DNA from: a phage
DNA length: 64,000 bases
Sequence record: PZ445436.1
Reading direction: 5' to 3' (one strand)
The notes below the pieces were generated by a model, which was not told the DNA's origin, searched no databases, and saw only the letters and a program-made list of their open reading frames with translations. Each line of letters opens with the position of its first letter. The stretch's first letter is position 1. A program made the position numbers and the translations under genes. Below are positions 3,279 to 64,000 of the stretch, piece by piece.

Positions 3279-3614
3279 TCACTTATAAAGACACGGAATA
3301 GCTTTATAGTGACAAGTAACGAATTTTTGTTTAATTTCTTTTGGCTGCTTAAGACCCAGAGCTACAAAAGGATGCGGAACATTTCGAATTTGACCAACTG
3401 GAAGAGAAGTCAAATCACCAACTTCGCAGAAACCTTCAGGAACATCAGGACCGACAGAGTGAACTACACACAGTTCAGGAACTTCACCTTGAACACGTTT
3501 ACCAATAATAAGTCCTGATTCTGTAACTTCTTCATCACCGGCTTGTGCAGGTTCAGAAACTAAAATAACATATTCACCGACAGCACGAATTGGTAGCTGT
3601 TGTACTTCAGACAT
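3279..3614 (-). CDS. 31: gp31 co-chaperonin (GroES analogue) for capsid protein folding
   Basis: 111 aa, sequence matches T4 gp31 as recalled; MotA-box middle promoter upstream. Confidence 0.9.
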
Positions 3615-3644
3615 CGTTTTTCCTTTTTGTTAACAGATGAATTA

Positions 3645-3669
3645 ATAATAACAAATAATTCTTAAAGCA
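3645..3669 (-). promoter_or_regulatory. MotA-dependent middle promoter for gene 31
   Basis: AAATGCTTTAA MotA box, 12-nt spacer, TATTAT. Confidence 0.65.
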
Positions 3670-3670
3670 T

Positions 3671-3979
3671 TTATTTACCAATAAATTGAAGCAAATGCTC
3701 AACTTTCATACCATTAACGGAAATCAATTTGTCAATAGAAAAACCTCGCCACGCACCAAGCTCAACATCAAATACTGGAATCATATCAGTAGATTCTTTC
3801 CGGGTAGATTCAGTCAATTTACCAGTTTGCATGGTTGGCATAAAGTCTGCGTCGCGAGTACCTTTCATAGTACGAATAGTACCATCAGACTTTTCAAAAA
3901 CTACGTTTGAAACACCCATGGACAGTTTAGTTTTCAAAATTTCACGAATTGCTACTTTCTGCTCAGTTGTCAGTTTCAT
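3671..3979 (-). CDS. hypothetical protein (31.1-like by position)
   Basis: 102-aa ORF. Confidence 0.5.
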   Translation of the reverse strand: MKLTTEQKVAIREILKTKLSMGVSNVVFEKSDGTIRTMKGTRDADFMPTMQTGKLTESTRKESTDMIPVFDVELGAWRGFSIDKLISVNGMKVEHLLQFIGK

Positions 3980-4216
3980 TTATTTACCTATTACAGTTTT
4001 AATATGAGTTGTTCCACGTTCTTTAAGGGTGGAAAGTAATTTTTGGCATTTTTCTAAATCAGATTTCCAACTATATGGTTTATCAATACAAACCCAATTT
4101 GTCTTATAATACTGTTTCCATTTAGAGAAAAAATATTTCTTATACTCTACAGCAAACGAGATGTTCTCATTAGAATAAGAACTAATTGCTGTAAGCTTTA
4201 CCAAACGAAATTTCAT
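3980..4216 (-). CDS. hypothetical protein (31.2-like by position)
   Basis: 78-aa ORF abutting neighbours. Confidence 0.5.
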   Translation of the reverse strand: MKFRLVKLTAISSYSNENISFAVEYKKYFFSKWKQYYKTNWVCIDKPYSWKSDLEKCQKLLSTLKERGTTHIKTVIGK

Positions 4217-4797
4217 TATTCACCACAGAATTCGTTGATATTTTCCCAGTTTAACTTATTCAAGTTTTTCTTAGGAACATTAAACACTTCAATACCCGCA
4301 TTTCGCAGAATATCATCCCAGCCAGGTTTATTTTTATCGTATGTTTCGCAATAAACCAGCTTTTTAATGCCAGATTGAGCTATCGCTTTTGCACAATCTG
4401 GGCAAGGAGAAAGTGTTACATACATAGTAGCACCTTCAATAGAAGAACCATTTCGTGCAGCAAACAAAATTGCATTTAGTTCAGCATGAATTTCATTTTT
4501 AGACGACCATTCAGAGTGAGCGCTACGGTGTTCTTTCGCCAAAACAAAACGATCAGTTGAACCAAATGATACGCATTCAGACTTATGGCCTTGAATGATA
4601 GTGTGTTTAGGCTTATTCAGCAACCAACCTTGCTCAGCAGCATAATCACAACAGTTCACACCCCCTGCGGGTGAACCATTATACCCAGTAGAAATAATAC
4701 GTCCATTCTTTTCAATTACTGCTCCTACCTTCCAAGAGCAACATTTTGATTCCTGCGATACTAAATATGCAATTTGAAGTACTGTACTCGCTTTCAT
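4216..4797 (-). CDS. cd: dCMP deaminase
   Basis: 193 aa; cytidine/dCMP deaminase zinc motifs (HAELNA ... PCPDCA). Confidence 0.9.
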   Translation of the reverse strand: MKASTVLQIAYLVSQESKCCSWKVGAVIEKNGRIISTGYNGSPAGGVNCCDYAAEQGWLLNKPKHTIIQGHKSECVSFGSTDRFVLAKEHRSAHSEWSSKNEIHAELNAILFAARNGSSIEGATMYVTLSPCPDCAKAIAQSGIKKLVYCETYDKNKPGWDDILRNAGIEVFNVPKKNLNKLNWENINEFCGE

Positions 4798-5132
4798 TTC
4801 ATAATCACCAGATAAGCAGATTTAGCAGTTTCAACACGATAAATTTCGTGACGAAGTTTAGTTATACTTTTAATAACAGAACTAATTATATTCTGCCCAT
4901 CTTTAAAGCGGTTTTTCTTATCAATAAAAATTGCGCCAACCATCTTTTTGTGAAGCTCAACTGGATACTTCGTCACAATAATAGCATCATATACAGAAGG
5001 ATGAATACTATTCACCAGAGTGTCATTCATTAAAGTTATTCTAATGAACTGTGCTGTTTCAGAATCAAGCGCTCTATGATCGCCAGTATCATTTTCAAGA
5101 CAATTATCAATTATATCAGTTAAATTCATCAT
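4794..5132 (-). CDS. hypothetical protein
   Basis: 112-aa ORF, ATGA overlap with cd. Confidence 0.5.
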   Translation of the reverse strand: MMNLTDIIDNCLENDTGDHRALDSETAQFIRITLMNDTLVNSIHPSVYDAIIVTKYPVELHKKMVGAIFIDKKNRFKDGQNIISSVIKSITKLRHEIYRVETAKSAYLVIMK

Positions 5133-55822: not shown

Positions 55823-56013
55823 TTTGAATGATCTATAATTAATTTTAAATCTTCTTCACTGACAAAAATTTCGTCAGGACCTTCTATAACTTCAACCATA
55901 CGAAGTTGATTAGTTAAGAGCTCACATACGAGCTCCTTGTTATAATCTTTAAATAGCTGGTCAATACGTTTCTTATGGGCTTTCTTAAGCTGACGCTTAT
56001 TTAAACGAGCCAT
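55819..56013 (-). CDS. hypothetical basic protein
   Basis: 64-aa ORF. Confidence 0.45.
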   Translation of the reverse strand: MARLNKRQLKKAHKKRIDQLFKDYNKELVCELLTNQLRMVEVIEGPDEIFVSEEDLKLIIDHSK

Positions 56014-56531
56014 TAATAACCTCGGTCTTGACGAGCGAAGTTTTCAGCATTTTTCAGGTAATAAAGTTTAAAGATTTCTTCAGCTGACATTCCAAGAGCA
56101 ATAAATTTATTCATGAAAAAGTGAAATTGATCAATCAGTTCAAATTTAATTTCAAGTTGATCTTCAGGAGATAAGTCTTGAATTTTCTTGGATTGCATTT
56201 CAGAATAACGTTTCTTCCAAGGTTTCCATACAGCAGAAGCTTCTTTTTCACCATTACTCATACCACCAAGAGAAGTATATAGCTCGCGAGTTTCGTCTGC
56301 AATATAATCGTCTTGGTTTCGCAACCAAGCAAGAACTTCTCCTGCAGTTTCAAGTGAATCAGGATGACGATTTGTTTCTGGTTTATCATTAGCCAAACGA
56401 ATCTGTAAATGCCGCTGCATATCAAGCATAACCTGCAGTGGGTCAATATTGTGCATAATATTCTCAGCATATGCACGATTTGCTTTATCAACACCTTCGA
56501 TCAAATGAGCACATTCATTAAAGTGAGCCAT
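56013..56531 (-). CDS. 56: dCTPase/dUTPase (gene 56)
   Basis: 172 aa from ATG 56529-56531 (MAHFNECAHLIEG...); MotA-box middle promoter upstream. Confidence 0.85.
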   Translation of the reverse strand: MAHFNECAHLIEGVDKANRAYAENIMHNIDPLQVMLDMQRHLQIRLANDKPETNRHPDSLETAGEVLAWLRNQDDYIADETRELYTSLGGMSNGEKEASAVWKPWKKRYSEMQSKKIQDLSPEDQLEIKFELIDQFHFFMNKFIALGMSAEEIFKLYYLKNAENFARQDRGY

Positions 56532-60913: not shown

Positions 60914-61276
60914 TTAAAAGAATTTAAATTTTTTCTTTGACCTTTTATTAAATGCATCTTGCAGTTGCATTGTAATACATTTTTCTACATGAGGAGCTAA
61001 CTCAGCTTTTCTTTCTTGGTCAAGAACAGCAAAGTCCATTACAACCTTTCCATCAACCCAATCCAGTTTAGTTACATACACTATATGCGTAGAACCATCT
61101 TCTAGTTTAATGACAATCTCCTGGATAACATTTTCCATAGCAGATTTAATTATCTTAAGAGACTCATTAAAAAGACGTTCTTTTCTTTCTTCTTCCCCCT
61201 CCGAAGAGGGGGATTCATCGATAATTTCCAGATCTAAATCTAAATCATCTTTATTCATTAAATTCTTCCATATCAC
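60914..61276 (-). CDS. gp40-like head vertex assembly protein
   Basis: 120-aa acidic ORF between uvsX and 41. Confidence 0.55.
   Translation of the reverse strand: MIWKNLMNKDDLDLDLEIIDESPSSEGEEERKERLFNESLKIIKSAMENVIQEIVIKLEDGSTHIVYVTKLDWVDGKVVMDFAVLDQERKAELAPHVEKCITMQLQDAFNKRSKKKFKFF
61194..61213 (-). other. intragenic CUUCGG hairpin inside the gp40-like ORF
   Basis: CCCCCUC-UUCG-GAGGGGG, encoding SPSSEGEE. Confidence 0.5.
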
Positions 61277-62432
61277 TTAACTGTTCGAGGTCAGTTTCTA
61301 AATCAGCAGCTGATTTACTTTTACTTTCTGGAGATTTAAATTTTTCAACCTTTGAGTTAATCAATTCATCAACTTCAGCTTCAACAATTTCATTGCTATC
61401 AATAGCACCTAACTGATAAGCACGTTTAATAGCATCTCGGAATGGTTGATGCTTAAATAAAGGACCCCAGAATGTAGTGCAGTTGGTATCTTTTGCACGC
61501 CAAGATTTTTCTTCGCGAATCATCTCACCGGTTTCTTCATCAAGAAATTCACGGGCATACCAGCCATTTTTAGGTTTTACTACAAATCCTAATTCTAGAG
61601 CCATATCTAACAATCCAGAATAAGGATCGATACCACCGTCAAATTTAACATCAATAAAGAATTTACTTTTTTCTTTAACGGTACGAGATTTTTCTACATT
61701 TAGAACAAATTGATACCCCTGAAGATCAGAACCATCTTTAATCTGGCGTTTACCGATAATGAATACGGTATCAGCCGAATACATTACGCCTGTACCACCT
61801 GTCATCACGGTTTTACTAAACATTTCAATTGTTTCAATTGTATGGTTAACCGCAACGCACGGAATATTTTTAATGCTAAAATAAGGAGTAACAATACGGA
61901 ATAATGACTTCAGTGATTTAGCACGAGTCATATCTGCCACAGATTTTTCATTCAAGGCATCTTCCGTTTCTTTCTTAGAAGCCATATTACCGATTGAGTC
62001 GATGAATACAATAACCTTTTCACCACGCTCAATAGCTTCAAGCTGGTTCACCATATCAATTTTCAGCTGTTCAACTGACTGGATTGGCGTATGAATTACT
62101 CGTTCCGGGTCAACTCCCATGGATCGCAAATAAGCTGGAGTAATACCAAATTCGCTATCATAGAATAGACAAACCGCGTCAGGATATTTGTTCAAATATG
62201 CCGCAACCATAGTCAAAGACATATTTGATTTAAAGTGTTTAGAAGGCCCTGCGAAAATAGTTAAACCAGACTGCATACCGCCATCAATCGCACCAGAAAT
62301 AGCAATATTAAGCATTGGGATTTTTGTACGGATTACATCCTTTTCATTAAAGAATTTAGATGTAGTCAGTTCAGCAGTCATTTTAGAAGTGGAAGCTTTA
62401 ATCAAACGGGATTTTAAATCTGCAATAGACAT
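61251..62432 (-). CDS. uvsX: UvsX recombinase (RecA/Rad51 family)
   Basis: 393 aa; Walker A GPSKHFKS; acidic C-terminus. Confidence 0.9.
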   Translation of the reverse strand: MSIADLKSRLIKASTSKMTAELTTSKFFNEKDVIRTKIPMLNIAISGAIDGGMQSGLTIFAGPSKHFKSNMSLTMVAAYLNKYPDAVCLFYDSEFGITPAYLRSMGVDPERVIHTPIQSVEQLKIDMVNQLEAIERGEKVIVFIDSIGNMASKKETEDALNEKSVADMTRAKSLKSLFRIVTPYFSIKNIPCVAVNHTIETIEMFSKTVMTGGTGVMYSADTVFIIGKRQIKDGSDLQGYQFVLNVEKSRTVKEKSKFFIDVKFDGGIDPYSGLLDMALELGFVVKPKNGWYAREFLDEETGEMIREEKSWRAKDTNCTTFWGPLFKHQPFRDAIKRAYQLGAIDSNEIVEAEVDELINSKVEKFKSPESKSKSAADLETDLEQLSDMEEFNE

Positions 62433-62509
62433 TCATTTTTTCCATAGGCATCATTATATTTTCCTCACTGGTTAAAGATAGAGTAATTATAACACAATAA
62501 ATTTAGGCA

Positions 62510-63358
62510 TTAATCAACTGCTATTGGATGAATAGCATTAAACTTATGAAATGCTTCTGATTTTTCTTTACGCGAAACACACATGCGAAGAACCTTTAGT
62601 GGTTCGTCTTCTTCACCCAACGATTTTCGTTTTTCAATATTAGAAGTTTTCCAACGAGCTTGCTCTGGAAACTCTCTATTGATTTGCTCAAGCGCTCTAT
62701 TATGTTTAGAATTACTACGAATTGAGCTGCACCCGCCAGGAGCTTGTGCTTTTCCAGATACAACCAGATATTTGAACAAGGCCAAATGCGGATAACCTTG
62801 ATTAATTAAATTGAGAAATGCATACATATCTTCGCATAAATCAATTTTTCCATACCCAATTTGTTCTGTCGTAAGTTTTCCGAGGTCATACCATGTATTC
62901 GTGAATCCGTATGAATTTTCACGATAATTACCCCAAGATGAAGTAATTTTAAAAATAGGTAGACGAGCATGGCCATGATAATACCCGCAATCCATGGCAT
63001 CTTCAACGTATTGAATCAATTCATAGAACTGTTCACGAGTTAATTGATTAACTTTATCTACGCAGCGACGATCATCTCTCTTTCGCATTGAACTCATACG
63101 AATAGTAGTATCATCGTCAATCATCCAGATTCGTTGACCTGCATACATATCAGTAATTGCTTTACGAGTACCGGCAATTCCGTTTACATCATCAGGAATA
63201 GTTATAATTTTAGCTCTAGACCCATAAGCATCATAATAAGCTTTTTCTTCGTGTTCACGCACTACAATATGCGGTTCATAATCAGTCGGAAACATATCAA
63301 GGGCAGAAACTGCCCCGACACGTTGATAACTTGGAATTACGAATTGAATCATTTCCAC
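62510..63358 (-). CDS. putative GT-A glycosyltransferase (candidate HMC-DNA glucosyltransferase)
   Basis: 282 aa between uvsX and 42 where T4 has beta-gt; DxD-type motif RIWMIDDDTTI; does not resemble T4 beta-gt as recalled. Confidence 0.45.
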   Translation of the reverse strand: MEMIQFVIPSYQRVGAVSALDMFPTDYEPHIVVREHEEKAYYDAYGSRAKIITIPDDVNGIAGTRKAITDMYAGQRIWMIDDDTTIRMSSMRKRDDRRCVDKVNQLTREQFYELIQYVEDAMDCGYYHGHARLPIFKITSSWGNYRENSYGFTNTWYDLGKLTTEQIGYGKIDLCEDMYAFLNLINQGYPHLALFKYLVVSGKAQAPGGCSSIRSNSKHNRALEQINREFPEQARWKTSNIEKRKSLGEEDEPLKVLRMCVSRKEKSEAFHKFNAIHPIAVD

Positions 63359-64000
63359 TCACCTTTATAGTCTTTTTTCACAATATGAGTTTCGCCAGTA
63401 TTCCACCAATGATCAACCAAATAAAAATGACGAGAATATACATGAAGACTTCCAACATTCCATATAATAGAACCTGCTTTATACTGACGAGTTGAATCGC
63501 CTGCATTCAAATCAGATACTAATTTATCTAATACGTATTTTTGCCATGCATAATCATTACGGAATCCGAAGACCACGTCATTTGAGCGCATGTTAACAAC
63601 TGCATTAATTTTCTTGTCACGAATCAGATACTGTACGGTATTCGTACACATGAAATCTGACATGCCATCTTTATTGTAGTCAAACTGCATAGATGGACGA
63701 GTATAAATCATGATACCACGTCGAGAATCAGGATTTTGACCAAGTTCAGCTAAACACATATCATACTGGGCATAGTTATCTTCTGACCAAATAGCCCAGC
63801 CATAATTCGAGTTAATTTCGCCTTTAGAAGATGCTACCTGCTGCCAAATCTTTGGTGTTTCACCCGGAATATCTTTAACGAACAAACTCTTAGATTTATA
63901 CCATTCAAGTTCACGCTGAATGTATTCATCATTAAGAGCGCCAAAAATAAACGGTTCATCTGCTACAAATGATGCGCCAATAATTTCAATAGTTTTAACG
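63349..64000 (-). CDS. 42: dCMP hydroxymethylase gp42, C-terminal ~217 aa (start lies beyond window end)
   Basis: Frame stays open to window end (YKSKSLFVKDIPGE...); track ORF starts at a TTG, an artefact. Confidence 0.9.
   Translation of the reverse strand, partial: VKTIEIIGASFVADEPFIFGALNDEYIQRELEWYKSKSLFVKDIPGETPKIWQQVASSKGEINSNYGWAIWSEDNYAQYDMCLAELGQNPDSRRGIMIYTRPSMQFDYNKDGMSDFMCTNTVQYLIRDKKINAVVNMRSNDVVFGFRNDYAWQKYVLDKLVSDLNAGDSTRQYKAGSIIWNVGSLHVYSRHFYLVDHWWNTGETHIVKKDYKGEWK

Follow-up and report, generated by a model that had tools for sequence, protein, structure and literature searches.

A gene between uvsX and gene 42 of a Tequatrovirus almost certainly encodes the T2/T6-type secondary DNA glucosyltransferase

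The open reading frame that lies between uvsX and gene 42 in the phage DNA analysed here (a stretch of 64,000 nucleotides, referred to as the window) almost certainly encodes the secondary DNA glucosyltransferase of the T2/T6 type, ba-gt or ggt, which adds a beta-1,6-linked glucose to alpha-glucosyl-hmC. The enzyme also goes by the name 'glucosyl-DNA beta-glucosyltransferase' (EC 2.4.1.28). The T2 and T6 genes were reportedly cloned and sequenced by Winkler and Rueger in 1993. Identity, synteny, family, fold and motif conservation were computed for the present analysis, and activity and phenotype are taken from the literature. Published work already covers the gene and its activity, the fold class, the synteny with T4 beta-gt and the part played in evading defences specific for alpha-glucosyl-hmC. 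Glucosyltransferases go undiscussed in the BASEL collection paper. The value of the assignment is one of annotation, and little of discovery.

The encoded protein is identical at 280/280 positions to the proteins of Solly and Bas39 (FriedrichMiescher), at 278/280 to that of T2 and at 276/280 to the T6 RefSeq enzyme. A comparison with the T2/T6 beta-alpha-glucosyltransferases and a profile search against glycosyltransferase families had both been proposed in the first-pass annotation, which had not recognised that this is the same enzyme. The profile searches assigned the protein to phrog_842 ('beta-glucosyl-HMC-alpha-glucosyltransferase', E = 6.4e-89) and to Pfam TAGT (PF20691), with 38.9 bits against a gathering cut-off of 27.5 and residues 3-207 aligned on positions 2-205 of the 205 in the profile. 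TAGT was the sole Pfam match. A search of NCBIfam returned no family for this protein.

Reading frame, start codon and neighbouring genes

The following features were located in this part of the window:

62510-63358, minus strand: uninterrupted open reading frame, 282 aa counted from GTG
62510..63352, minus strand: coding sequence of ba-gt / ggt (280 aa and a stop codon), a beta-glucosyl-HMC-alpha-glucosyltransferase of the Pfam TAGT family
63349..63352, minus strand: ATGA overlap of the ba-gt start and the gene 42 stop, read from the sequence, with the same coding-sequence boundaries in Bas39, Solly and T2
63349..64000, minus strand: C-terminal 216 codons of gene 42 (dCMP hydroxymethylase), whose N-terminus lies past the window end
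61251..62432, minus strand: uvsX recombinase, the downstream neighbour (Pfam T4_UVSX_C, 4.7e-39)
62433-62509: spacer of 77 nt between uvsX and the glycosyltransferase gene
56013-56531, minus strand: gene 56 (dCTPase/dCDPase) candidate, in a position that agrees with the Bas39 annotation

The reading frame is a real gene and no chance frame, since it is held at full length and with >90% nucleotide identity by 474 phage records (megablast). The carriers are Escherichia, Shigella, Yersinia and other Tequatrovirus phages. Moreover, tblastn recovered ~200 further records with 60-80% identity from T4-like phages of Klebsiella, Enterobacter and Salmonella, in which the gene also adjoins gene 42. Because the orthologues annotated in Bas39, Solly, T2 and EL measure 843 nt, we placed the start at the ATG at 63352, the counterpart of their starts, and not at the GTG. 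The place first given to the frame, between uvsX and gene 42, is thus right, and its length of 282 aa exceeds that of the orthologues by two surplus N-terminal codons. The ATGA overlap with gene 42 is a layout typical of translationally coupled genes.

Gene 42, the upstream neighbour, already named in the first-pass annotation, is 98% identical to T4 gp42 and matches Pfam Thymidylat_synt (1.6e-15). At the equivalent place, the T4 order is uvsX-segA-b-gt-42. In the window, b-gt is not found in the uvsX-gene 42 interval and ba-gt stands there instead, as in T6, T2, Solly and Bas39; segA, the GIY-YIG homing endonuclease gene of T4, is missing from the spacer of the window and likewise from T6, T2, Solly and Bas39. 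Across 96-100% of its length, the window matches Bas39, teqdroes, PhiZZ30 and Some at 95-97% identity, and it comes from an ordinary Tequatrovirus of the T6/Solly type.

Assignment of gene 56 leans on positional agreement with annotated Bas39, because its Pfam dUTPase_2 score (21.6 bits) falls under the curated cut-off of 22.9; that match was accordingly dropped as support for an hmC pathway. The mechanically called frame of this candidate runs 31 codons upstream to a GTG, and an internal ATG is its likely start. A scan of 62300-64000 for promoters and terminators gave counts that were not above those of shuffled sequence, and Rfam and tRNA scans of the entire window gave no matches. It should be noted that window positions 1-25000 (25 kb) correspond to aligned spans of ~31.6 kb in PhiZZ30, Some and Bas39, and of ~25 kb in teqhal. 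Approximately 6.6 kb present in certain close relatives is thus missing here from the nrdA/nrdB-ligase-tail fibre region, and mobile inserts are a likely cause.

Conserved residues and predicted fold

A word-indexed protein search for the wider family gave 11 clusters, while an exhaustive profile search gave 2165 cluster representatives (E <= 0.001). From these 2165 representatives, 49 members with identities down to 17% were aligned, and the invariant positions proved to be I6, R11, D79, D80, D81, D175, G186 and G207. Three sites in the window are relevant here:

63110..63118, minus strand: codons of D79-D80-D81 (GAC GAT GAT), the DxD motif, invariant in the 49 members
62828..62833, minus strand: codons of E174-D175, with D175 as candidate catalytic base of an inverting GT-A enzyme
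63320..63322, minus strand: codon of R11 (CGT), the family-invariant Arg; the window retains it, while phage T2 has His

The motif RIWMIDDDTTI, which had been the basis for calling the product a DxD-type glycosyltransferase, is indeed present and occupies residues 74-84 of the 280-aa protein. Judged from the alignment, the DxD is the most conserved feature of the family.

A structure prediction had also been proposed. The AF2 model, of moderate confidence (mean pLDDT 72.5, three loops below 50), contains a single Rossmann-like nucleotide-diphospho-sugar transferase fold, the hallmark of GT-A, and its matches are of the GT-A type with GT2 nearest (alignments of 170-188 residues to GT2 enzymes). 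Strand 74-79 ends at the DxD, an arrangement seen in GT-A enzymes. The GT-A assignment therefore stands, on the family match, the fold and the invariant motif alike. The PDB sequence search returned chance matches alone (E > 1) and no solved relative. Given this moderate confidence and a family without experimental structure, residue roles are matters of inference: D79-D80-D81 may bind metal and UDP-sugar, as their conservation and modelled position suggest, and D175, which the model places at the N-terminal end of helix 174-184, is a candidate for the catalytic base.

Modification chemistry, allelic variation and other readings of the gene

In the proposed pathway, gene 42 together with the gene 56 dCTPase would furnish hmdCTP, with 5-hydroxymethyl-dC replacing dC. 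An alpha-glucosyltransferase, encoded beyond the window, would attach an alpha-linked glucose to hmC in DNA. Its gene is probably present in this phage, judging from relatives: in Bas39, the closest full genome, alpha-gt is found ~12 kb past the point that matches the window end, and it has been reported in Solly-type phages (PMC13390438). The ba-gt product would then transfer a second glucose from UDP-glucose, in beta-1,6 linkage, onto alpha-glucosyl-hmC, yielding gentiobiosyl-hmC, as described in the literature (PMC11078745; PMC13216743). D79-D80-D81 would grip the divalent metal and the diphosphate of the UDP-sugar, and an invariant acidic residue, probably D175, would deprotonate O6 of the acceptor glucose in a single-displacement (inverting) transfer. 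A UDP-alpha-glucose donor and a beta product imply an inverting reaction, as in GT2. The second glucose masks alpha-glucosyl-hmC from defences specific to it, such as the Brig1 glycosylase and BapA.

The chemistry goes back to classical sources, namely Lehman and Pratt (1960), Kornberg et al. (1961) and Kuno and Lehman (1962). T6 without ba-gt retains alpha-glucosyl-hmC alone and is more sensitive to Brig1 (PMC11078745), and T6 delta-g-gt DNA is a substrate of BapA (PMC13160076). The gentiobiosyl form is still a target of GmrSD. The consequences for restriction sensitivity that had been anticipated from the sequence are thus documented for this enzyme, as protection from Brig1 and BapA with persisting sensitivity to GmrSD/BrxU. 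The Durham Collection study, in which DNA was analysed by LC-MS, found ~1/3 5-hmdC and ~2/3 alpha-gentiobiosyl-mdC in Solly, with no beta-glucosyl form and no further sugar, and described the TAGT gene as syntenic with T4 beta-GT (PMC13390438). Because the window protein is identical to that of Solly, we expect by analogy T6-like DNA with ~2/3 gentiobiosyl-hmC, ~1/3 bare hmC and little mono-glucosyl-hmC. Such a phage would be predicted to resist defences of the Brig1/BapA type, while restriction of the GmrSD/BrxU type would still apply.

The share of gentiobiosyl-hmC varies between phages with homologous ba-gt enzymes, from 5% of hmC in T2 to 72% in T6 (PMC6024577; PMC13160076). In EL-type phages, hmC, mono-glucosyl and di-glucosyl forms stand at 1:2:2 (PMC13390438). 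Since the EL enzyme is 97.5% identical to the window protein, the exact ratio is not readable from ba-gt alone and other factors contribute.

In T2 (MH751506, positions 3286-4128 of locus L004), R11H, at the codon corresponding to window 63320-63322, and P251S are the sole differences from the window protein. Codon 11 is CAT (His) in all T2 records examined, and encodes Arg in the window, T6, Solly, Bas39 and EL. Only seven T2 records and SV76 contain the 96-nt T2 segment without any change, an exclusivity to which synonymous differences add. Pattern scans of IMG/VR found the H11 allele in 0 contigs and the R11 allele in 3, which is too few to gauge the frequency of H11. Both public T6 genome sequences have a possible ba-gt lesion. 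In AP018814 and its RefSeq copy NC_054907 (positions 4001-4840 of locus L001), an in-frame 3-nt deletion removes one Asp of the DDD, a change that no other sequence shares among the 473 records hit with that segment. In MH550421 (positions 238-1083 of locus L008), a TAG amber codon is found at Gln10 and the coding sequence is annotated from Met20. These lesions could be sequencing errors or laboratory-stock mutations.

We tentatively consider the possibility, which is rather doubtful at present, that natural ba-gt alleles set the ratio of mono- to di-glucosylation in T-even DNA, the H11 allele of T2 being hypomorphic and explaining ~5% against 72%. If this were true, the sequence of the reading frame would predict the modification state of the DNA and its sensitivity to Brig1-type glycosylases, and the window allele, with R11 and a full DDD, would be of the predicted high-gentiobiosyl type.

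Could the gene then be weakly active or inactive in this phage, leaving the DNA T2-like and mostly mono-alpha-glucosylated? The T2 gene is 99% identical, yet gentiobiosyl-hmC is ~5% there, and both the possible lesions in the T6 records and the intermediate ratio of EL-type phages point the same way. However, the window allele is intact, with Q10 (CAA), R11 and the full DDD, and the DNA of Solly, made with an identical protein, is ~2/3 gentiobiosylated, so that we regard a weak or inactive enzyme as very improbable.

The first-pass annotation had implied a primary glycosyltransferase acting on hmC itself, possibly with another sugar, in replacement of T4 beta-gt function. The gene does fill the beta-gt slot, and TAGT was first defined, as the family name indicates, through proteins that accompany TET/JBP oxygenases and act on hydroxymethylated bases. 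Moreover, many phages with neither alpha- nor beta-GT carry a TAGT homologue on its own, and part of the family may thus use other acceptors (PMC13216743). Against this, genetics shows the T6 enzyme, which has 99% identity, to be needed for the second glucose only, and Solly, with the identical protein, has neither beta-glucosyl-hmC nor another sugar. A primary role is consequently most improbable for this gene. A different sugar-transfer specificity, as had been suggested, holds insofar as the acceptor differs from that of beta-gt according to the literature on T6; what is transferred is a second glucose, and not a new sugar onto bare hmC. Finally, a non-glycosyltransferase Rossmann-like nucleotide-binding enzyme, such as a sugar-1-phosphate nucleotidylyltransferase, would share the GT-A-like fold, but the shorter alignments to nucleotidylyltransferases (~130-145 residues against 170-188 for GT2), the profile match to a glycosyltransferase family, the invariant DDD and the genetic evidence of glucosyl transfer (PMC11078745) make it next to impossible.

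Comparison with named systems

The ba-gt enzymes of T6 and T2 (YP_010067197.1 and AYD82639.1) are 99% identical to the window protein over their full length, occupy the same uvsX-gene 42 slot, agree in Pfam and PHROG family and share the ATGA overlap with gene 42. T2 differs by two substitutions, H11 and S251 against R11 and P251 in the window. The T6 RefSeq record differs by three substitutions, and the window protein has one extra Asp. Compared with the T2 and T6 alleles, that of the window keeps every family-invariant residue. The glucosyl transferase SOLLY_044 of Solly and ba-gt of Bas39 are 100% identical to the window protein, with equal gene order, whereas the surrounding genomes are ~96-97% identical to the window in nucleotide sequence.

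With Pfam PF20691, TAGT (TET-associated glycosyltransferase), the window protein has in common the full profile match, the GT-A fold and the invariant DxD, and the nearest CAZy family is GT2. The T6 enzyme has likewise been modelled as GT-A, sister to GT2, in a NAR 2026 paper (PMC13216743). The T-even enzymes depart from the family definition in that their partners are a dCMP hydroxymethylase and a primary GT-B glucosyltransferase, and not a TET/JBP dioxygenase, in that they act on a sugar the base already carries, and in ~70 extra C-terminal residues past the Pfam TAGT domain. Most T-even phages combine a primary GT with a TAGT, and the alpha-GT plus beta-GT pair of T4 is the rare case, found in only 6/753 genomes (PMC13216743).

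The beta-glucosyltransferase of T4 (b-gt, PDB 1JG7) resembles ba-gt in its slot next to gene 42, its UDP-glucose donor and its beta-linked product. As noted in the first-pass annotation, the two proteins are unlike each other: BLASTP of the reading frame against T4 beta-gt gave no similarity (best E = 2.2) and Pfam PF09198 was not matched. T4 b-gt is a GT-B enzyme whose acceptor is hmC, whereas ba-gt is a GT-A enzyme whose acceptor is alpha-glucosyl-hmC.
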